A program made the position numbers and the translations under genes. 64,000 nucleotides of DNA from a virus (lineage: Duplodnaviria > Caudoviricetes): positions 1,602 through 65,601 of the IMG/VR virus record IMGVR_UViG_3300021387_001128, one strand, 5' to 3'. This document shows positions 1,378 to 64,000 of the stretch, piece by piece. The first letter of the stretch is position 1. Every line of letters starts with the position of its first letter. The notes beneath the pieces were generated by a model. That model saw nothing but the letters and a program-made list of their open reading frames with translations, was not told where the DNA came from and did not search any database.

Positions 1378-2931
1378 TTATCCGGCACACATATACGTAA
1401 TCGTCAGCCAGAAGTTCTGATTCGCAGATCTATTCTGCAAAGTATAGAATGTAATCCGATTAGGCGAAGGCAGAATATCGATCAGTGCGATGTTCTCGTT
1501 GTTCGCGCCGCCGCCTTCTGTTCTTGCGATTGGTCTGAGTGCATCGTTTGTGTAAGTGATTGGAATCGTCACATACGTATTGGTAGCCACAGCCTGCGTA
1601 AAAGTAAACACAAAAGCCATATGCACCATATTGCCGCTGCGATATACATAAGCATTGGAGATCGTACCGTCTGTGCTGCTGAAAGATACTTCATTTGAGA
1701 CATCCTGTGTTTTAAGTAGGTTTGCAATATCTGTCAGGCTGATAGGATCACTCCCGCCGTTACCGTTCGCGATAACATCTCCCTGGAACTCACCGTTGCC
1801 ATCGGCTGTCACCTTAAAAGCATTAGACCGATCATTGTTCGCAGTTCCATTTCCGACAACGAAAATCTCATTTCCATCTTGGACCACACGCTTCCAATTG
1901 GACGCTGTGAACACTGTATCAGAATTGGGAGTAATGCATTCATATCCGTATCCGAGTCTGTTGACACGTTTTCCGGCCGCATATTCTGTCCCGGAAACCC
2001 ATTCGTCATATGGAGTTCCTTCAACATTGTAAGAACCGGAAACATGCATTGTTTGAAGATTTGCAATTGTTCCAAAGCCTTCAGCGTGCGAATAATTCCC
2101 GTTTGCGAAATTGCCTTCATTCTCAACATGAGAGGACATTCCGGCCGCAATGCCGTTTTTATGGATTAAGACATTCTTATTAAGGGCTTCGCTGCTGAGA
2201 GTCTTGTTTAAGACAACAGTTCTTGTATCGGCGTTGAAACTGTTGACAACTGCTGTCACTCCGCTCTCTGTAAAAACCATTCCTTTTTCCGGAACAAATG
2301 TGCCGCCGACAACATATGATGTTGAATTTGCGGCTCCTGTAAGAGGACAGTATTGCATTTCAGCTCTGCCCTCTGCATGTGAGTATGCTCCTCTGGCAAC
2401 AGTTCCATAACCTTCGGAATGAGAAGTATTCCCAACGGCAGTCCCAACGCCTTCCGCATGAGAGTTGTCGCCATTGGCAATGCCTGTGTTTTCTGCGTGC
2501 GAACCAGCGCCAGTCGCATAAGACATTGAACCTTCGGCATGAGAGTCCAAACCACTTGCTGTCGTTTGAGATCCGGTCGCAAAAGCATATTGATTGCTTG
2601 CTTCAACTCTATCTCCAAACGCGAAACTTGCAAGGCCAACGCGAGTGTTCTCCTTACGTCCACGGCTAAGAGTTGTTGTGAGCACAGTATCTTCTTTGTC
2701 AGCTTTGCCAGATACATCAAAAGTATCTTCTCCGTTTGGATCGATCCAGGCTCTCACTAAAGGATCTGTTGGTTCTGTGCTCCCATAATAAATACCACTG
2801 TCCCCCTGTTCGCCTTTAGGACCTTGAATACCCGGCTCGCCTGGATCTCCTTTAGGACCTTTCGGCCCTGTAAGAGCGGGTAATGTAATCCATTGTCCGT
2901 TCTCGTCTCTAACTTGAATAATGTTACCCAT
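1378..2931 (-). CDS. Tail fibre/adhesin with collagen-like repeat, YadA-head-like (SHAEG) repeats and a CBM5/12-like module
   Basis: GPKGPKGDPGEPGIQGPKGEQGD; many AxGxxSHAEG repeats; WVSGTEYAAGKRVNRLGYGYECI..ASNW motif. Start placed at MGNIIQ (2931) after AAGGAG. Confidence 0.75.
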   Translation of the reverse strand: MGNIIQVRDENGQWITLPALTGPKGPKGDPGEPGIQGPKGEQGDSGIYYGSTEPTDPLVRAWIDPNGEDTFDVSGKADKEDTVLTTTLSRGRKENTRVGLASFAFGDRVEASNQYAFATGSQTTASGLDSHAEGSMSYATGAGSHAENTGIANGDNSHAEGVGTAVGNTSHSEGYGTVARGAYSHAEGRAEMQYCPLTGAANSTSYVVGGTFVPEKGMVFTESGVTAVVNSFNADTRTVVLNKTLSSEALNKNVLIHKNGIAAGMSSHVENEGNFANGNYSHAEGFGTIANLQTMHVSGSYNVEGTPYDEWVSGTEYAAGKRVNRLGYGYECITPNSDTVFTASNWKRVVQDGNEIFVVGNGTANNDRSNAFKVTADGNGEFQGDVIANGNGGSDPISLTDIANLLKTQDVSNEVSFSSTDGTISNAYVYRSGNMVHMAFVFTFTQAVATNTYVTIPITYTNDALRPIARTEGGGANNENIALIDILPSPNRITFYTLQNRSANQNFWLTITYMCAG

Positions 2932-2954
2932 TTTATTCTCTCCTTTTCGTGGCA

Positions 2955-3653
2955 TTATTCCTTCATCTTAGAGAAATCACCACTAACCCATGCAACCTGA
3001 TTGACATAGCGGATGGCGTGCCAGCCGTTCTCCGCTGTAGCGATCCAGTCGAACGAGTCATTTTTATTACAGACACCAACCTTGTTATATTCTTTGCTGT
3101 TGCCGGTGCGAATGTTAACGCTGTTGGTTGTAATAACCACTTGTTTACACTTCTTCTTTACGGCAAACTGGTCGTAATAGTTCTGACCGTAGTTTGCCCG
3201 GTTTTGCCTGCCTTTCTCGCTGCGGTCAGCAGGCTTTTCATAACGGTCTACAACCACGTCGGATGCTTCCCGTACGGATGTTGCGGCTTTTAATGCGTTC
3301 AAACAGGTTTTGTAGCCTTGCAGCTCTTGCCAGAGAAACTCTAACTGCATGTTTAAATCGCCAATAGATTTTCCATGATCCAGAGCATAGTTCAGTAAGT
3401 TCTCTTTCCGGGTTGGGTAAGTCCATTGGGCAAGACCATACCCGGCCCTGTCATCGACAAAGCCGGGATACAGTCCGTTATCCACTGAATAGGTATATTG
3501 TTCATCGGTCATATTCAGTTTTCGTTCATATGAGCCTTGAAGGTTCCGTGGATTCAGCTTGCTTTCCACATACAGATTACCCATCAGGGCCGCGACGCCA
3601 TAAGAGTTTAATATCTTGGGATATAGAAAATCCCAGACTGCCTTCTCATTCAT
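2955..3653 (-). CDS. Phage tail-type lysozyme (Phage_lysozyme2-like) with C-terminal SH3b; putative endolysin
   Basis: GVAALMGNLYVESKLNP ... GYGLAQWT ... QLEFLWQEL ... YEKPA motifs; C-terminal VNIRTG..W..I....WVSG SH3-like segment. Confidence 0.8.
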   Translation of the reverse strand: MNEKAVWDFLYPKILNSYGVAALMGNLYVESKLNPRNLQGSYERKLNMTDEQYTYSVDNGLYPGFVDDRAGYGLAQWTYPTRKENLLNYALDHGKSIGDLNMQLEFLWQELQGYKTCLNALKAATSVREASDVVVDRYEKPADRSEKGRQNRANYGQNYYDQFAVKKKCKQVVITTNSVNIRTGNSKEYNKVGVCNKNDSFDWIATAENGWHAIRYVNQVAWVSGDFSKMKE

Positions 3654-3973
3654 GGCTCAAGATGCTGATGCAGGCTTAAGACAGCCGCCTCAATCGCAGC
3701 GTCGATAGCAACAGAATCTACTTCATAACCCTGGCTTCCCAGAACGCTGAGAACATAAGCCTTTTTCTGTTTTCCTTCTTCGGAGTTATAAAGCTGCTCA
3801 GCCGCTTTCACAGCGGTAGAAATAGCCATCTTGATAAGAGCCGCCTGATTCTCACTGAGCTTTCCGTTTTCCACGTTGATCTTGCTTTTGATCCACGGGA
3901 TAACAAAATAAGTGAGCACCGCGCTGATAAGCGCAATAACAGCAAGAATAACTTGAGTTAAATCGAAAGTCAT
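3650..3973 (-). CDS. Phage holin (LL-H-like)
   Basis: 107 aa, N-terminal TM helix, AVKAAEQLY..G.QKKAYV..IDAAIEAAV pattern; lies between two cell-wall hydrolases. Confidence 0.75.
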   Translation of the reverse strand: MTFDLTQVILAVIALISAVLTYFVIPWIKSKINVENGKLSENQAALIKMAISTAVKAAEQLYNSEEGKQKKAYVLSVLGSQGYEVDSVAIDAAIEAAVLSLHQHLEP

Positions 3974-3975
3974 AG

Positions 3976-4713
3976 TTATTTCTCCTTTTCAACATTTAGA
4001 TATTTAGCCATCATGTACCAGTTCTTCCGTCTTCCGTAACTGATTCTGGCCCATTTTTCTCCGGGTGCTTCAAGCGTAACGCGTGCTCCAATAGGAATCT
4101 CCTCGTAAAGCTTGCAGGTTGTGGAAGGCTGCTGGCGCATCTTTACATACCTGCCGGACGGAGCGGTAACGATCGCAGTTGCACCGGTGGCCGGCACAGG
4201 ATTTTGCGGTGTGGTGTTTTGCGGAATCGGAATCTTAACGTCTCCTGCCAGTTTGGATAAGATGCCGTAATAGCCCCATTTACCCAATGAAGGATCAACT
4301 TTGACTGTGGGAGAAGTCATATGTGTGATGTTTAAAGGATTAATGCTGGTTACTACGCCGACGTGATAATAATCTTTAAGATCTCCGTTGTAATATGCTC
4401 CGCCTTTTTGATATCTTTTTGGGAGATCCCATTTAGAAGATCCTTTTTCGTAAGCTTTAAAAACAACGTCCCCGACGCGAAGGTCAGAGACGCTGTTAAT
4501 CTTTTTTAATTCCACAATTTCTTTCCGTGCGGCCCAGTTTGAACCGTGGATTCCTGTCCATTTCAGCCCCATTCTTCGGATTGCTCCGATAATAAGTCCA
4601 ATACAGTCACAGGTTCCGTCACTGCCGTCGCCGGGCTGACGGTAAGTAGGTCTTGATCTCTTGATTATATCTACGTATTTTAGAAAACTTTTAAGCTTCT
4701 CTTCGTATGTCAT
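3976..4713 (-). CDS. NlpC/P60-CHAP-like peptidoglycan hydrolase with C-terminal SH3
   Basis: DGTCDCIGLI (Cys nucleophile) and YYHVGVV (His) motifs; C-terminal VKMRQQPS...W..ISY..WYMMAKYL SH3-like segment. Confidence 0.7.
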   Translation of the reverse strand: MTYEEKLKSFLKYVDIIKRSRPTYRQPGDGSDGTCDCIGLIIGAIRRMGLKWTGIHGSNWAARKEIVELKKINSVSDLRVGDVVFKAYEKGSSKWDLPKRYQKGGAYYNGDLKDYYHVGVVTSINPLNITHMTSPTVKVDPSLGKWGYYGILSKLAGDVKIPIPQNTTPQNPVPATGATAIVTAPSGRYVKMRQQPSTTCKLYEEIPIGARVTLEAPGEKWARISYGRRKNWYMMAKYLNVEKEK

Positions 4714-5048
4714 CCGTTTTCTTCTCCTTCCTCTTCAGAATCTTCGTTGCTGTCATTGGCCACAGTGGAAGGATTTGTCGCGGTTCCTTTTAAGCTCAGC
4801 TCAACTTTGGTTCTTTCAAGAGCTCCAAGGATGATCTTTTCTGTCGTGCTGTTATGCGTATAAGCAACTGTATCTAATGCTTTGTTTGCGGTAACAACCA
4901 GCGTCAGATAAACACAGGCCATAGCCGCCTCAGGCCGAAAGTAAATCAGAGCAGCAATGACAAGAAGGTAGATCCCCCAGAAGATCGCTCCGTATCGGGC
5001 GAGCCATTTTGAGAACTGCTGTTTAGGGTCTATAATTTTTCTTTTCAA
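4710..5048 (-). CDS. Two-TM membrane protein in lysis cassette
   Basis: Two hydrophobic helices and an acidic C-tail. TTG start at 5048 follows GAGGGTGA (ORF track extends to 5126). Confidence 0.6.
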   Translation of the reverse strand: MKRKIIDPKQQFSKWLARYGAIFWGIYLLVIAALIYFRPEAAMACVYLTLVVTANKALDTVAYTHNSTTEKIILGALERTKVELSLKGTATNPSTVANDSNEDSEEEGEENG

Positions 5049-5058
5049 AAGATCACCC

Positions 5059-5598
5059 TCATTGCAGGAAATCTCCCTGCTGATATTTATTGTAGAAGAA
5101 CTGATAGTCTGCTTTATACACGTCATTCTGCCAGCCGTATTTCTTTACGATCTTTTCATATTCCTCATTTTCCTTGATGAGGTTCTGGAAATCTTCTTCT
5201 GTATGACGCTCTCCGACGCGTAGGGATCGTGAGAAATTAAGAACATGCACTTTAATTCGGTCTGCCCGTTGTGCGTCTATCTGTTCTTCAATTTTCTCAA
5301 GCCTGTTCTGTGTTTCCTTACAGTTGAATTGCGCATTGTTTTTAATTTCTTCCAGCGCGGCCGTCTGTTTGTCGTCCAGCTCTTTAATCTTCCGTTCTGT
5401 TTCAGTGCGCATGGTTTCGATGTCCTGCTTCAGTCCGCCGGTTAAACGTTCTCCGATCCAGTTCAGAAGAGCGGTAATAGGGGAAAGTTTGATTTTTGAA
5501 AATTCAAAAAACAAAGAAAAGAAAAAGAGTACGATAAGCGCCGACCAGCCAATGTTTTGCGATATCCATTGAGCAGCCGGCTTTACAATTTCATTCAT
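5059..5598 (-). CDS. Membrane-anchored coiled-coil protein (lysis-module associated)
   Basis: N-terminal TM (WSALIVLFFFSLFF) followed by a coiled coil; GAGGTG RBS. Confidence 0.6.
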   Translation of the reverse strand: MNEIVKPAAQWISQNIGWSALIVLFFFSLFFEFSKIKLSPITALLNWIGERLTGGLKQDIETMRTETERKIKELDDKQTAALEEIKNNAQFNCKETQNRLEKIEEQIDAQRADRIKVHVLNFSRSLRVGERHTEEDFQNLIKENEEYEKIVKKYGWQNDVYKADYQFFYNKYQQGDFLQ

Positions 5599-5684
5599 GG
5601 AAGTGCACCTCGCTCATTAATAATTGTTTCGAGCGAGACTGTAAATCATATATACAAATCTCAAATAGTTTCGCTCTGTGCATA

Positions 5685-6260
5685 TTACGCAAACATCGCT
5701 TCAATTTCTGCCGTAGACGCGATTGCGTTGTACAGAGTTCTTCCTGTAATCAGATTTGCGTCCGTAGAATCAGGGGCTGCTGCCGTTGTGTGATCGGTAA
5801 TTCCTACGCTTTCGGCTGAAGCAATGTGTCCCTGTTCTGTGATTCCAATTTTGTATAAACCCTGCGCTTTGGCCGTTGAAACGCGTCCGGAGTCTGTCGC
5901 GTGAGAATAGGCTGTATTTCCGTAATCCCCGCGAAATGCGGTGGAGCTGGTTTCACCAAGCGCAAGGGAGGGAGAGATCTCAACGTAGGAAGATCCGCCC
6001 CAGCGATAGGCAAGATTAGTATCGAGAGTAACATAGATAACGCCCGAATTTCCAGTCAGCGGAAGTTCGGACCATGTAGAACACTCAATAACATCATCAA
6101 CAAATCCGGGAAGCTGATCTGTTCGAACTTTGCCATTCTCGTCAAGCGCAGCTACCCCGTATGTATTTCCGTTGATAACAAATTGATGTGCGGCATCTCC
6201 AAGTTTTTGTGTCCCGTTTCCGATTGGGAGAACGTCTACTCCCAGATTCCATTGTGACAT
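5685..6260 (-). CDS. Hypothetical virion/fibre-associated protein
   Basis: 191-aa ORF with AAGGGAG RBS; GVAALDENGKV..QLPGFVDDVIE...YRWGGSSYVEIS..LALGETS pattern typical of phage fibre proteins. Confidence 0.6.
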   Translation of the reverse strand: MSQWNLGVDVLPIGNGTQKLGDAAHQFVINGNTYGVAALDENGKVRTDQLPGFVDDVIECSTWSELPLTGNSGVIYVTLDTNLAYRWGGSSYVEISPSLALGETSSTAFRGDYGNTAYSHATDSGRVSTAKAQGLYKIGITEQGHIASAESVGITDHTTAAAPDSTDANLITGRTLYNAIASTAEIEAMFA

Positions 6261-6276
6261 AAAGTTCTCCCTTCTT

Positions 6277-7017
6277 TCATGTGATAGTTACATTCCCGTT
6301 GGAAGCAACGGTGAATGTGAGGGTTTGGGTTGTCCCGCCGTTTGGAACAGTGACCGTAAAGGAATTTGATTGTCCGTTTGAAGATGGAAGATTGATTCCG
6401 GCGATATATTTTGTTTGTGAAACTGTTCTGCTCGGCGCGTCCGCGATGCTGGATTGAATCTCAGTTCCGGAAGGAATATAGCCGCCTGCAACACTGGAAA
6501 CCGTGATGTTTGCAGTTGCACTGCCGCCGCCAACGGAGGTAACCTGAACGCCATTGTTTGTATCGCTCAGAGTTACGTTCTGTCCGTTTGTCGATACGGA
6601 AGGAGTCACTTCATTCGTTGCGGATATTTCTCCTGTCGCTTCGTTCAGCTTAAGATAATTATCGGAATGTCCGGTTGATTCCTGAATGTCGCCCGGGTTA
6701 ATCCAGCCGGGCCTGTCAACATTAGATCCACCGCTTGCTGTTGCTTTAACGAGTGCATAATATCCTGAGGCAGGTTCTGTAGAGCTTGCAGCGCCGAAGA
6801 TTTCGCCTGTTGCGTTAGTTGCCTGAGTAGTCGCGGGAGTCGAACTGTCCGGGGAAACAGAAAGATGAATGGACCCGCCGGATGTCTGTGCCTGCTGAAC
6901 GTTAATGTTAACGTTAATATCCGTGTTGACAAACTTATCTTTTGTCCCCATGTGAACGTTGGTTCCATTTTGTTTGGTCACTGTAATATTTGCGGTTCCA
7001 TCAATTAAATTAGGCAC
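6277..7017 (-). CDS. Ser/Thr/Asn-rich beta-strand hypothetical structural protein
   Basis: 246-aa ORF, GTG start after AAGGAG, collinear with the operon. Confidence 0.6.
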   Translation of the reverse strand: MPNLIDGTANITVTKQNGTNVHMGTKDKFVNTDINVNINVQQAQTSGGSIHLSVSPDSSTPATTQATNATGEIFGAASSTEPASGYYALVKATASGGSNVDRPGWINPGDIQESTGHSDNYLKLNEATGEISATNEVTPSVSTNGQNVTLSDTNNGVQVTSVGGGSATANITVSSVAGGYIPSGTEIQSSIADAPSRTVSQTKYIAGINLPSSNGQSNSFTVTVPNGGTTQTLTFTVASNGNVTIT

Positions 7018-9231: not shown

Positions 9232-9981
9232 TTAAGCAGCAGTGCCGCAGCCGCAACCAAAGTTGTTGGCACAGCAGTTAGGATTCTGCACGACATAGGC
9301 CGGCCGCGGAGTCGGAGCAAGATACTGCTCAAGAGCCGTGGTCTGCGCTTCGTTATTCGCAAGAATCTGAGCCGTCTGAGCGCCCTGAGAAGCGGCAAAA
9401 CGCAGCGCCTGATTGCTGTTGCGCTCCTGATCCAGAGCATTCTGCAGATTAGCAATCCGATTCTCGTAATTCTGCTTGATACCATCCAGCTCCAGCTGGC
9501 AAAGTTTGTCCATAATCTTCTGATTGTTGGCATCGCAGTTAGCACGAGTGTTCGCGGCTTCGCTCGCCATGGTATACTTCAGATCTGCCGTCGCACTACG
9601 ATTTTCACAGCAGCATTGCTGCAGGGAACTCTGAAGAGAGAAATTCTGGTTCATGTCGGCCATCTGTCGAGCATTGGCGGAGATTTCAGCCTGAGCAAAC
9701 CCATTGGCCTGTGCCGTGGTAAGCCCATTAATGCCGTTCATAATAGCGTTCTGGTCAAATCCACGCTGGATTTCGTTGCCGTTACCGCCGTATCCGCCAA
9801 ATCCACCATTGCCCCATCCGAACATAGCCATCCAGACAAGCAGGAACCACATCCAGTTCCCACCAAACATACCACCGTCGTTATTGTTGTAATTCCCAAC
9901 AGGAGCAACGGGCATATACATTCCATTTTCGGGCATCATAGTTTTTTCCTCCGTTTCATAATTATTGTTGCAGTAAGTCAT
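9232..9981 (-). CDS. Gly/Asn-rich, CCC-motif coiled-coil protein (spore-coat-like phage family, tentative)
   Basis: GGMFGGNWMWFLL..GWGNGGFGG, GFDQ, LQQCCCENR, PAYVVQNPNCC..GCGCG motifs. Confidence 0.7.
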   Translation of the reverse strand: MTYCNNNYETEEKTMMPENGMYMPVAPVGNYNNNDGGMFGGNWMWFLLVWMAMFGWGNGGFGGYGGNGNEIQRGFDQNAIMNGINGLTTAQANGFAQAEISANARQMADMNQNFSLQSSLQQCCCENRSATADLKYTMASEAANTRANCDANNQKIMDKLCQLELDGIKQNYENRIANLQNALDQERNSNQALRFAASQGAQTAQILANNEAQTTALEQYLAPTPRPAYVVQNPNCCANNFGCGCGTAA

Positions 9982-55718: not shown

Positions 55719-55793
55719 TGGCTCTGCGAGCTGGATTCGAACCAGCAGCCGTCCGGTTAACAGCCGGATGCTCTACCGTTGAGCTACCGCAGA
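55719..55793 (-). tRNA. trnN: tRNA-Asn (GUU)
   Basis: TCTGCGG TA GCTC AACGGTA GAGC A TCCGG CTGTTAA CCGGA CGGCT GCTGG TTCGAAT CCAGC TCGCAGA G CCA: full cloverleaf, GTT anticodon, G discriminator, encoded CCA. Confidence 0.95.
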
Positions 55794-60448: not shown

Positions 60449-60852
60449 TACTCAGTATCGTCCTGGGTAACGGCTTCAGCCGGGATCTCCTGTTTAGCCG
60501 CAGTTTCAACTTTAGATTCAGCCGCGACTTCAACTGCAGGTTCAGCTTTGTTCTCCGCCTTCTTGTCTTTGCGCATAGGTACAACCTTTTTTTCGTTAAC
60601 ACGCTTCTCCGCTTCGAGCATGCTGTAGAACTCCACCAGCGCTGCAAACAAAGCGGGAGTCTTTTCATACTTGTACTGCGAGATTCCGTAATCCCTTGTC
60701 TTTTTAACAAAGGTGTACTGAATCCCTTTTGATGCAAGGAACTGCACTTCACGGTATCTTTCTGTCTGATACTCCATGTCGAACGCCTTGTTCGGCAGTT
60801 GCCTTCTCTCTCCCTTTTCAATGCGAACAACGTTTGGCTTTTTGTTTTCCAT
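60448..60852 (-). CDS. Hypothetical protein, first gene of the late region
   Basis: AAGGAG RBS before MENKKPN; YKY.KT..LF.AL..FY motif; Ala/Glu/Lys-rich tail. Confidence 0.65.
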   Translation of the reverse strand: MENKKPNVVRIEKGERRQLPNKAFDMEYQTERYREVQFLASKGIQYTFVKKTRDYGISQYKYEKTPALFAALVEFYSMLEAEKRVNEKKVVPMRKDKKAENKAEPAVEVAAESKVETAAKQEIPAEAVTQDDTE

Positions 60853-61278
60853 GTAATCTCTCCTTCTTAACACGAACAATAAAAAATGAATCCAGCAGAT
60901 TGTTCGGTAAATGATTTTAAGGATCTGCTGCTCCTTGCTTTGAAGAGACTCGTTGCAAACGGTCTCTCCCCTTTACATTGATTTTCGAATGACCCGCGAG
61001 TTTTATTCGTGATTTTTATAACAATACTGAAAAACGTTATATAAAATGAGCCGTGAGATTTGCGTGCGGAAGCGACGAGACCTTAAAATACCCCCTGTTT
61101 TTAGTGGGTATGGGTAAAACTTTTCAGCGTAAAATTTACTTGTGGGTTTCCTATATTTTACAGAGAACCAACAAGGAGAATAGCTATACATTTTTGTTGA
61201 GTAGATATAGAGAATGTATAACTGTCTGTGATTCACGCGGTTACTGCGGAAAATAAAAATAGCCCCATACTTTCCCTA

Positions 61279-61420
61279 TAGAGATATAGGAGAAGTATAG
61301 GGTTGAGTTTATGTGAGTGAGGATGGGTGAGGTGGCATGAGGAGGAGAGGATGTAAGGAGGTGGGTTTGAGTTGGAAGAGAGGAGAGGAATTTGAATTTG
61401 AAGGAGGACTTGGAAGAGAA
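61279..61420. other. Purine-rich, almost C-free tract at the strand-switch point
   Basis: About 140 nt on the plus strand with only 2 C residues; GAGGA/GGAGAGG-type short repeats. Confidence 0.7.
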
Positions 61421-61477
61421 CAAAACCCATTTATGAAAAAAATCAAAAAAACATTTTAGCGTAAATTCACGATATTA

Positions 61478-61718
61478 AACAGGACGCCCACAACACACAT
61501 GGACGTCCTGTTTAGTACCCTGAAAGGAGGTGCAGCCAATAAAAGATTGGGAACGTGCCGTGATAGCGGTGCTCGGACTCATTCTAACTTTGGTTCTGCA
61601 GTGTCTGCTGGCTTTTGCGGTCAAGTAGCCTGCGGGCAGGGGCGCATAACCGGCGCCCCTGTGCACCTCTCTTACGTTTTGATGATACCAAATCGCTTTG
61701 AGTATTGTCAATAAAACG
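61478..61718 (+). ncRNA. Candidate multi-branched structured RNA
   Basis: AACAGGACG/CGTCCTGTT, GAGGTGCA(61527)/TGCACCTC(61662) enclosing CAGGGGCGC/GCGCCCCTG, and CGTTTT-GATGATAC/GTATTGTC-AAAACG; flanked by ATTTATGAAAAA direct repeats. Confidence 0.4.
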
Positions 61719-61778
61719 ATTTATGAAAAATAAACAGACAACAGTGCTGTTTATTAATAAATTTTAAGGAGGTATCCC

Positions 61779-61931
61779 ATGTACCAGAGCCCTTATTACG
61801 TAGGAGAGATTGAGTTTTCCTACATCAGCGACGCTGCCCAGTATTGGGCAGACTGTCCGAATGCCGTCGTTACTGATTCAAACGGTGACGAAGTGCCATC
61901 TGAGGACCTTGAATCGATCCTCGGGTGGTAG
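61779..61931 (+). CDS. 50-aa acidic hypothetical protein (not in ORF track)
   Basis: AAGGAGGT RBS; MYQSPYYVGEIEFSYISDAAQYWADCPNAVVTDSNGDEVPSEDLESILGW. Confidence 0.7.
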   Translation: MYQSPYYVGEIEFSYISDAAQYWADCPNAVVTDSNGDEVPSEDLESILGW

Positions 61932-61993
61932 TCCGCCTGACGAGGCCGGGTGGTTCCCGGCCGAAACGAACGTCGTGAGACGTGCGTAGCGGA
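61932..61993 (+). ncRNA. Hammerhead ribozyme, type I
   Basis: Stem I TCCGC/GCGGA; core CTGACGA; stem II GGCCGGG-TGGTT-CCCGGCC; GAAA; stem III CG-A-ACGTC-GTGA-GACGT-G-CG; GUA triplet, predicted cut after 61988. Confidence 0.88.
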
Positions 61994-62043
61994 AAACCGC
62001 AAAATTAAATAAGGAGCATAGCTCCAGGAAAGGAGGCACTCTC

Positions 62044-62139
62044 ATGGGAGTGTCGTTTGTTGTTTGGTTCCCCACGTTGGTTATATTCGTCGCTACCTGG
62101 GAAAGTCTCAGGTATTTAATTAACAAACATGGATTCTAA
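62044..62139 (+). CDS. 31-aa single-TM peptide (not in ORF track)
   Basis: AAAGGAGG RBS; MGVSFVVWFPTLVIFVATWESLRYLINKHGF. Confidence 0.65.
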   Translation: MGVSFVVWFPTLVIFVATWESLRYLINKHGF

Positions 62140-62141
62140 AC

Positions 62142-62201
62142 TCCCGAAACAGGCTTCGGCCTGTCGTCGCAGTGGTGGCTCCCTGCGGCCTGACGATGGG
62201 A
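62142..62201 (+). ncRNA. Hammerhead ribozyme, type II, with one extra nucleotide after A9
   Basis: TCCC GAAA, stem III CAGGC-TTCG-GCCTG, GUC triplet (cut after 62165), stem I GTCGCAG/CTGCGGC, core CTGACGA, extra T, then GGGA closing a short stem II. Confidence 0.75.
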
Positions 62202-62235
62202 AGCTGTCGCGGAACAAGCTAGGAGGTTGTTTGTT

Positions 62236-62442
62236 ATGGCTAAGAAGGTAAAGAAGTTCGATATCCTCGCAAATACTCATTGGTTCGCTGGTTGGAGGTA
62301 TTGCGTCAGCACCTCGACCAGTTTAATTAGCACAAGCTGGATCGAGCACTTCTTTGTAACCAAAGAAGCAGCTTACTCTTTTGCTGCTGAAGCTGAGCGT
62401 CAGGGATATGTATACCTGATCGCAACACCTGAAACCTACTAA
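62236..62442 (+). CDS. 68-aa hypothetical protein
   Basis: AGGAGG RBS before ATG 62236 (MAKKVKKFD...). Confidence 0.7.
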   Translation: MAKKVKKFDILANTHWFAGWRYCVSTSTSLISTSWIEHFFVTKEAAYSFAAEAERQGYVYLIATPETY

Positions 62443-62675
62443 AGTTTGAGGACAGGAGATCCACTGGGTCTCCTGAGTTCAGGCTTTGGTCTGCGGGTTA
62501 CAGATGGACGTTAAGCATCTGAGGGCATGCCGCTGCCCACATCTCGTATGGCACTTACCCAGCGAGAAGCGGTCTTTAATGCTCTACGGAGCAAGGTGTC
62601 AGTAAACACCGCACCGCAATCCCCAGCGGCAACATCGCAGGGAGTCCTGCTAATAAAAACATTGGAGGTAGCCCC

Positions 62676-64000
62676 ATGAAGAATATTATCCGTATTGATC
62701 TCGTCCGTAACACTACTGAGGAAATTGGTATCTTTGATAGCGAGATTACTCGCTGGTTCGACGAGCAGGGTCGTGACGTCGCTTACGACCTGATTAAAGT
62801 TAAGGCCGAAGTTCCCTCCGGCCGTAACGAGTCCGAAGAGATGGACCGTGTAAACTGTGAGCTGACCCGCTACGCCAATCGCGGGTATCAGCTCCCCGTC
62901 CCACACAAACTTGCTGGTGTCACTTATGTTCCGCTGTTTGCGGCGGCGTCTGATGTTCGCAAAGCAACCTCTACTTGGATTAACAAGGAGGTTGCTGAAA
63001 AGTTCTGGAAGTGGGCCATGTGCGGTCTGACTCTTCAGGACGTTAGTGGCAAAATCGCCATTAACAAGTATATGGCCTATATCGGGCTGCTTGCTTCTGC
63101 GAGCAAGCGGTTCGAAGAAGTCTTCGGCCGCACTATCGACATCCGCCGTGTAGCGGTTGTTAAGGACCGCTACGTCAAAGTCATCGGCAACGTTGACTTT
63201 GTTGAAGGTGTCGAAGTCGAGCATAACACCGAGAGGGAACTTGAGATCAACGCGTTCGATGGGTTTGCCATCATTCGCGAAGAGCTCACCGATGGTGAGT
63301 CCTGCTCTCTCCGTCCAGGTCCCTGGGGCAAAGCGTTTGCCCAGGCCACGAACTTCACTGGGCTTCCGGCCAAGTTTGTTGACTTCTGGGGTCGCGAAGT
63401 CCGTACCCAGGACGTCGACATCATTATGTTCGAAAGCTGCTTCAAAGCTGCGAAGCTCTATAAGAGCTGGGAACAGTATTGTGAAGCGTTCGAGCAGCTT
63501 GGACACCACATCTGTGCTTGTGTTCGTGAACACGAGCCCAAGCTGAAGGGCATGCCCTATCAGCAGACCCAGACCTTGTTGGGCGACGATGGAGATGTTG
63601 CTTTGTTCGCAGAGCATAGTGCCGCCACCGTCTCCAAGTATACCGAAATCAAGAACGCCGTTGGTCTGCTGTCTAAATGGCAGAAGGCCGCTGCGAAGGT
63701 CTACAATCCGCTTCTTAAAGAAGCTCATACTGCCCGGTCCATCCAGGATAAGTATGCTTCTAAGAAGCAGGACATGCTCGGTGGTCGTATTCCCGAGCTG
63801 GGTTACAACGCCTTCATCGCTCCGGATATGGTGGCTGTGATTCAGGGAATCTTCGGCTACGAGATCACCGGTGTTCTCAAAGCCGGAGAATGTCATTGCT
63901 CCAACTGCGAAATGGGTGAAGTCGACATCACCCGTAATCCGCACCTGGATAACGCCCACGTTGTGCTCAACAACGTGGAACGTATGCCTTTTGTTTCCAA
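62676..64000 (+). CDS. Free-standing YonO/QDE-1-like two-barrel RNA polymerase (partial, runs off right end; not in ORF track)
   Basis: GGAGGT RBS, ATG 62676, open to the window end (441 codons). Motifs KYMAYIGLLAS, NAFDGFAII (D195), R213-PGPWGK219, DITRNPHL (R420). The DxDGD loop is expected just past the end. Confidence 0.8.
   Translation, partial: MKNIIRIDLVRNTTEEIGIFDSEITRWFDEQGRDVAYDLIKVKAEVPSGRNESEEMDRVNCELTRYANRGYQLPVPHKLAGVTYVPLFAAASDVRKATSTWINKEVAEKFWKWAMCGLTLQDVSGKIAINKYMAYIGLLASASKRFEEVFGRTIDIRRVAVVKDRYVKVIGNVDFVEGVEVEHNTERELEINAFDGFAIIREELTDGESCSLRPGPWGKAFAQATNFTGLPAKFVDFWGREVRTQDVDIIMFESCFKAAKLYKSWEQYCEAFEQLGHHICACVREHEPKLKGMPYQQTQTLLGDDGDVALFAEHSAATVSKYTEIKNAVGLLSKWQKAAAKVYNPLLKEAHTARSIQDKYASKKQDMLGGRIPELGYNAFIAPDMVAVIQGIFGYEITGVLKAGECHCSNCEMGEVDITRNPHLDNAHVVLNNVERMPFVS

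Follow-up and report, generated by a model that had tools for sequence, protein, structure and literature searches.

The window, a 64-kb stretch of DNA, is nearly the whole of a 65.6-kb IMG/VR virus contig whose completeness is judged at 47%. Terminase, portal, and giant structural genes occupy the minus strand. The switch to plus-strand transcription falls in a divergent region at ~60.9-61.5 kb, and past it lie four small ORFs with strong Shine-Dalgarno (SD) sites (p32, p50, p31, and p68), followed by a large gene. (Such strong SD usage presumably argues against Bacteroidota as host.) Two hammerhead ribozymes, HH1 and HH2, are set among the small ORFs. The features, in order of position, are these:

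61408-61421, plus strand: candidate promoter motif ACTTGGAAGAGAAC, between the divergently transcribed gene sets; six related phages share it unchanged, with diverged flanks
61530-61628, plus strand: p32, the first small ORF of the operon, encoding a hydrophobic peptide; GTG start, SD AAGGAG
61779-61931, plus strand: p50, ORF with SD AAGGAGG, whose UAG stop (61929-61931) abuts HH1
61932-61993, with a 3' tail to 61999, plus strand: HH1, type I hammerhead (direct reading, descriptor, minimum-energy fold, homologs)
61932-62442, plus strand: block HH1-p31-HH2-p68, 511 nt, present in the window and absent from the matching place in the related locus L012
61989-62165, plus strand: predicted released RNA, 177 nt, bounded by both cut sites, with 5'-OH and 2',3'-cyclic phosphate ends
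62044-62139, plus strand: p31, ORF for a 31-residue hydrophobic peptide; SD AAGGAGG (62030-62036), ATG at 62044, UAA stop (62137-62139)
62142-62201, with a pseudoknot tail to 62205, plus strand: HH2, type II hammerhead (Rfam RF02276, descriptor, homologs)
62206-62235, plus strand: conserved leader GUCGCGGAAC...AGGAGG following HH2, which carries the p68 SD (62221-62226)
62236-62442, plus strand: p68, small ORF 3' of HH2 (ORF list)
62440-62488, plus strand: long hairpin, conserved, which begins with the p68 stop codon (folding energy -28 kcal/mol, z = -3.9)
62676-64000, plus strand: large gene, first 441 codons, the contig ending inside it; homologs 54% identical in L001/L002

The small ORFs differ in their conservation. 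A weak homolog of p32 is present at the matching position in L046, and p50 has homologs in L012 (56% identity), L046, and L030/L031. For p31, no homolog was found among the 101 loci searched; p68 has no Pfam or PHROG match, and no homolog among the loci searched. The L001 homolog of the large, RNA polymerase (RNAP)-like gene (3902-6394, plus strand) encodes 830 residues, contains a DYDGD motif, and matches phrog_8308, a family of unknown function; it gave no Pfam match, and no match in a PDB sequence search. Elsewhere in the window, a tRNA-Asn (GUU) gene (55719-55793, minus strand) lies between structural genes, and related phages have a tRNA at the matching place. In L012, an Rfam abiF RNA match (9365-9401, plus strand; 39.9 bits against a cut-off of 37) directly follows the tRNA gene.

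The motif ACTTGGAAGAGAAC occurs in exact form just once in the window, ~110 nt before the first plus-strand ORF, and is preceded by GGA/TTTGAA-like repeats (context 61383-61471). Its position and invariance make it a candidate promoter of the plus-strand operon, for a phage RNA polymerase. The ribozyme region is probably early, judging from its place (at the divergent switch by the terminase module, and upstream of the large gene) and by analogy with Thermus phage P23-45, whose virion polymerase transcribes the pre-early genes, including the gene for a second polymerase (PMC10770324).

HH1 begins on the base that directly follows the p50 stop codon (0 nt between them). An open stem I of 5 bp (61932-61936 with 61989-61993) leads into a canonical core: CUGACGA (61937-61943) and GAA (61963-61965). 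Stem II has 7 bp (61944-61950 with 61956-61962); stem III has 9 bp (61966-61974 with 61979-61987), contains one A.G mismatch, and is closed by a GUGA loop. The pairs flanking the core are present (A61966-U61987, the 15.1-16.1 pair; G61944-C61962; G61989-C61936), and H17 is A, not G. The cleavage triplet is GUA, and the cut is predicted after A17, position 61988. Four residues of loop II (61951-61954) can form a pseudoknot with the 3' tail (61996-61999). On folding, 61925-62000 gives the three-way junction of a hammerhead as its minimum-energy structure (z = -4.3), with no competing fold. (That fold also shows a distal extension of stem I, 61925-61929 with 61996-62000, which is not conserved in relatives; the pseudoknot is preferred.)

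HH2 begins 2 nt after the UAA stop codon of p31 and has the type II arrangement. Stem II is open and has 4 bp (62142-62145 with 62198-62201); stem III has 6 bp (62149-62154 with 62159-62164) and a UUCG loop; stem I has 7 bp (62166-62172 with 62183-62189) and a 10-nt loop. The core consists of GAA (62146-62148) and CUGACGA (62190-62196); an additional U (62197) is inserted between A9 and G10.1. Here too the core-adjacent pairs are present (A62149-U62164, G62198-C62145, G62166-C62189), and H17 is C, not G. The triplet is GUC, and the cut is predicted after C17, position 62165. Loop I residues GGCU (62177-62180) can pair with the tail AGCU (62202-62205), with one G.U; most relatives have AGCC. 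The weak point of HH2 is stem II, which has just 4 bp and a bulged U. Its 3' strand is taken up by a competing hairpin (62193-62208) in the minimum-energy fold (z = -1.7), where stems I and III do form.

Both elements carry the core that Perreault et al. (2011) require of a hammerhead (Rfam clan CL00010), C3 U4 G5 A6 N7 G8 A9 ... G12 A13 A14, HH2 with the one inserted U. Several searches bear on whether these motifs are real. A hammerhead descriptor of our own, run on both strands of the 64 kb with dinucleotide shuffles as control, gave HH1 and HH2 as its sole strict matches; 0.055 were expected per shuffle. A comparison with the Rfam hammerhead models, proposed as a check in the preliminary description, recognised one of the two. 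Two local searches scored HH2 at 37.1 bits with RF02276 (Hammerhead_II), a borderline pass of the gathering score of 37. HH1 scored 23.2 bits with RF00163 (Hammerhead_1), below the gathering score of 34, because the short 4-bp stem III of that model misaligns the 9-bp stem III of HH1; by structure it is a type I hammerhead nonetheless. Neither element was listed in a whole-window Rfam run at the gathering threshold with fast filters, and an RF02276 search of the window's own record gave no match, unlike the local cmscan. No other ribozyme class was found in 60850-62750 or in 12 related loci, and a blastn search of the GenBank phage collection with 61700-62500 returned no match.

The preliminary description had placed a type I and a type II hammerhead here, cutting after 61988 and 62165, the first starting on the base after one stop codon and the second 2 nt after another, and together releasing a 177-nt piece. 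Direct reading of the sequence bears out both starts and the length of the piece, and direct reading, the descriptor, and the homologs agree on the types and cut sites. Failure of the cores to be conserved in related phages had been named as grounds for giving up the idea; in the homologs the cores are intact and the helices covary.

The comparison drew on 45 related IMG/VR loci, fetched with an alignment of the neighbouring 296-residue protein. (The nearest relatives of that protein, P0001-P0006, are 83-99% identical.) A covariance model, R1, was built from three type I copies, and searching with it recovered eight full-length type I homologs, all in the matching switch region and on the same strand as in the window. 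In the alignment of eight sequences, 96% of cells are paired and 16 of 24 pairs have changed on both sides; because the model itself fitted the alignment, the figures lean towards the structure, yet the size of the effect is considerable. None of 500 shuffles was as good, and sliding the partners abolishes the signal. The four pseudoknot pairs of the HH1 type are 94% paired in the eight homologs, one of them having changed from U-A to C-G in three phages.

Type II homologs came from motif and descriptor searches (MAFFT alignments of type II copies misplaced stem III), and were found in L018, L036, L046, and L051. Comparison of the window with L046, L036, L018, L051, and the metagenome copies shows covariation in stems I and II, according to our own parse rather than a formal test. 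From JGI metagenomes a pattern scan gave 39 loci; the majority are clear type II hammerheads that share loop I with HH2 and have the extra U and an AGCC tail. The pattern forced the extra U in that scan; it was unforced in the IMG/VR scan, where all real matches had it. (L048, L050, L060-L062, and about a dozen of L063-L101 were set aside as chance pattern matches inside coding regions.) The extra base after A9, which the preliminary description regarded as natural, is real: seven of eight type I relatives carry it, as do all the real type II relatives found unforced. It is therefore a family trait, rather than a defect. HH2, as its sequence indicates, is a member of a widespread metagenomic type II subfamily with a loop I/3'-tail pseudoknot and the extra U; it is the common type II family with this pseudoknot that Perreault et al. 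(PMC3088659) described.

Hammerheads also come in pairs in L036, L053, L058, and the L041 contig. The type I pairs of L053 (6530-6584 and 7796-7857, plus strand) and L058 (2456-2518 and 3336-3389, plus strand) lie ~0.9-1.3 kb apart, and the second type I hammerhead on the L041 contig is at L054 301-365 (minus strand). Multiple ribozymes per genome seem common in these uncultured phages. The HH2 homolog of L046 (~3290-3375, minus strand) carries a 23-nt insertion of two mini-hairpins between the extra U and stem II, and could represent either a variant with a branched stem II or a copy that has lost activity. A separate element is shared by L034 (~1560-1680, minus strand) and L041 (~2900-3010, minus strand), two independent copies in the matching early region. 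It is RNA-like and apparently multi-hairpin: AAUGCGC; a GUCGUGAGAC-type hairpin resembling a hammerhead stem III; CUGGUUGG; and AAGCAAUCC. A CUGANGA core is lacking, and Rfam gave no match.

These observations suggest a model of operon processing, in which HH1 and HH2 are active cis-cleaving hammerheads that cut a polycistronic transcript into monocistronic units with hairpin-capped ends. We hold this reading with a probability of about 0.7; that cleavage occurs, when it does so, and what it does to stability and expression are all inferred. The transcript would begin in the divergent intergenic region and run through p32, p50, HH1, p31, HH2, p68, the long hairpin, and the large (RNAP-like) gene. 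Each ribozyme would fold and cut co-transcriptionally and constitutively, just 3' of the preceding stop codon, HH1 aided by its loop II/3'-tail pseudoknot and HH2 by its loop I/3'-tail pseudoknot. The p50 mRNA would then end in the HH1 body. The predicted 177-nt RNA folds with a 4-bp hairpin at its 5' terminus (61989-62000) and the UUCG hairpin of stem III at its 3' terminus (62149-62164). The p68 mRNA would start with HH2 stem I, followed by the conserved leader and its SD.

What such processing might gain the phage is presumably insulation: each small gene would have a defined 5' untranslated region and its own decay rate, whatever lies upstream, and ribozyme-led units could be gained, lost, or shuffled without promoters or terminators of their own. 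Predicted SD accessibility of p31 and p68 is equal in the precursor and in the cleavage products, and therefore any benefit does not come through exposure of the ribosome binding site. The predictions make a gain in stability and context independence more likely. What a 5'-OH end does to an RNA depends on the host RNases. In hosts with RNase J1, such an end can destabilise an RNA rather than stabilise it, as with the glmS ribozyme in Bacillus. The suggestion in the preliminary description that such ends may matter for transcripts made by a phage RNAP in particular is speculative.

Placement at stop codons is a regular property of these ribozymes. Each of the ten that were checked either overlaps the upstream ORF's stop codon or starts 0-2 nt past it. 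In L017 (666-726), L036 (2673-2735), and L041 (3680-3742), all on the minus strand, the upstream stop is itself the UGA (U4 G5 A6) of the CUGAUGA core, so that the catalytic core doubles as a tandem in-frame stop signal. The topology is not tied to the gene upstream: behind the gene for a 'TWEFD' protein (133-138 residues), L017 and L036 have a type I ribozyme but L018 has a type II.

This abutment or overlap is also an argument that cleavage is conditional, with a terminating ribosome occluding stem I of HH1 or stem II of HH2, or with the HH2 hairpin trapping an inactive fold; cutting would then report translation or folding kinetics. We regard this as unlikely. Regulated cleavage of phage hammerheads is raised by Perreault et al. 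(PMC3088659), and the competing hairpin at 62193-62208 provides a candidate for the inactive state. Core base N7 and one tail base also differ in concert between phages, being C and G in the window and L046 but U and A in L018, L036, L087, and L094. That co-change, however, amounts to one event, and a 3-bp mini-hairpin in the tail explains it equally well. In L046, the tail has stayed conserved even though the 23-nt insertion parts the two strands of this alternative helix, and HH1 lacks a competing fold altogether.

Constitutive cutting into single-gene units is also to be distinguished from 3'-end formation as such, in which the ribozymes would replace terminators for a YonO-type virion polymerase that possibly ignores host terminators, perhaps also giving a 5'-3' exonuclease an entry point. 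The setting offers something to this idea, which we nonetheless consider quite improbable. The operon lies upstream of an RNAP-like gene; no convincing intrinsic terminator was found between its small genes; and in P23-45 the pre-early transcripts have their ends at a conserved 26-nt motif of an unusual kind (PMC10770324). But cleavage leaves the polymerase running, genes with good SD sites follow each ribozyme, and homologous ribozyme subfamilies occur in many unrelated metagenomic contexts. Another structure in the operon, the long hairpin at the end of p68, may be a processing signal or an unusual termination signal. It comprises ~21 bp with an internal loop, and no U-tract. It is kept in L012 (~3520-3572, minus strand) and L036 (1935-1981, minus strand), with changes that keep the outer helix paired.

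The long hairpin also marks the right edge of an insertion or deletion. In L012, the stop codon of the p50 homolog joins directly to the sequence that follows the p68 stop in the window, namely this hairpin; therefore the 511-nt block is an indel, and its left edge is the first base of HH1. Other comparisons likewise separate ribozymes from neighbours. The type II ribozyme, the conserved leader, and the SD occur together in six phages, including L018, L036, L046, L087, and L094, and the downstream genes are non-homologous by BLASTP. Homologs of p50 lie downstream of a type II ribozyme in L046 and L036; in the window p50 lies upstream of HH1. This cassette-like distribution suggests that the small genes led by ribozymes could be plug-in units. 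More tentatively, indeed doubtfully, accessory genes in the (pre-)early operon of this group of large phages might turn over as ribozyme-led cassettes, each a hammerhead, a short conserved leader with its SD, and a small ORF, with self-cleavage in place of promoters and terminators setting gene boundaries for a non-canonical phage RNA polymerase. If true, such cassettes would be natural counterparts of synthetic ribozyme insulators, and the idea would account for ribozymes welded to stop codons.

On another reading, the ribozymes merely travel as passengers with mobile gene cassettes, or are relics in decay that now bring the phage no benefit. Their distribution is patchy: of the 45 related loci, ~10 have ribozymes. 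Model, descriptor, motif, and Rfam searches gave none in the four nearest IMG/VR relatives with full flanks (L003, L005, L006, L008; 73-76% identity in the neighbouring 296-residue protein), and therefore the elements are dispensable. The indel relative to L012 also fits. Yet the cores are intact, the helices are kept by many compensatory changes, the pseudoknots are kept, and the rule of position at the stop codon holds across unrelated flanking genes, which together indicate purifying selection on activity and make passengers or relics a very improbable account.

The ends that hammerhead cleavage leaves, 5'-OH and 2',3'-cyclic phosphate, fit the substrates of the RNA ligase RtcB. The preliminary description accordingly allowed that the 177-nt piece, which is short and has both an SD and an ORF, could be circularised; closure of the piece into a stable circle or circular mRNA, whether its ends were joined by RtcB or through self-ligation of a hammerhead, is scarcely credible, however, with type I and type II ends whose stem I partner strand leaves with the upstream fragment and so cannot rebuild a hammerhead, with a predicted product that folds its two ends into separate hairpins, with no RtcB gene on the 65.6-kb contig (47% of the genome), with ribozyme spacing that is not conserved among relatives (~760 nt in L036, and a single ribozyme in most), and with the statement of Perreault et al. 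(PMC3088659) that circular or spliced products of clusters were sought and none found.

The proposed processing of the operon into monocistronic units places the locus among known arrangements. According to Perreault et al. (2011, PMC3088659), hammerhead clusters in prophages often flank single genes or short gene blocks, and the flanked genes vary. The clusters described there include those of Clostridium scindens, Azorhizobium caulinodans, and the ardA cluster of Agrobacterium tumefaciens; three such prophage clusters cleave in vitro, and one in E. coli. Processing into monocistronic units was proposed for them in the same source. The arrangement has thus been described in phages and prophages since 2011, and the present locus is a clean further example. 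It changes nothing in knowledge of hammerheads themselves: it is a good test system, and no new kind of element. For the biological role of bacterial and phage hammerheads, which were found in 2011, the locus provides a compact test case: two topologies; a 177-nt product with a tiny ORF; and, as natural controls, related phages that share the flanking genes minus the ribozymes.

Viroid, satellite, and retrozyme hammerheads share the cleavage chemistry, which is predicted here. Those systems repeat an identical ribozyme, so that the unit ends rebuild the hammerhead and ligate; here two different topologies bound the fragment, and its ends fold apart. Closer in setting is HHphage of the haloviruses HF1 and HF2, which lies 13 nt upstream of an early helicase gene (PMC3088659). 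It too is a hammerhead in an early phage gene leader within a polycistronic transcript. Unlike HH1 and HH2, HHphage as described in that text has core insertions, is salt-dependent and single, and belongs to an archaeal virus.

Both elements resemble their Rfam families while departing from them in detail. HH1 shares with RF00163 the type I core, the open stem I, and the GUA cleavage triplet; its 9-bp stem III with an A.G mismatch and GUGA loop, and its loop II/3'-tail pseudoknot, set it apart. HH2 has the core, open stem II, hairpin-closed stems I and III, and 4-bp loop I/tail pseudoknot of RF02276. Its tail, however, is AGCU (with one G.U) rather than AGCC, and the further conserved tail and SD are specific to this phage group.

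The nearest likeness in arrangement is to the clusters described in the available text of Perreault et al. (PMC3088659), in which at least two cis hammerheads of mixed type, on one strand, bracket a small gene or short block in phage DNA. The cut sites here lie 177 nt apart around one ORF, and the neighbours include terminase and portal genes. The carrier differs from the phages and prophages of that text: an uncultured large phage of lytic type, with the ribozymes at the head of an operon that leads into an RNAP-like gene. Relative to the same text, three observations are new: the placement at stop codons; the leader and SD that follow type II copies; and the indel evidence.

Finally, the predicted action of the cassette recalls RiboJ (PMC6206723), in which a hammerhead ahead of a ribosome binding site removes upstream RNA to leave a context-independent 5' untranslated region. 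RiboJ was engineered from a satellite-RNA ribozyme and a designed hairpin, whereas the cassette here is natural, its cleavage is predicted, and no change in accessibility of the ribosome binding site is expected. The portable combination of ribozyme, leader, and SD could serve as a natural insulator part.
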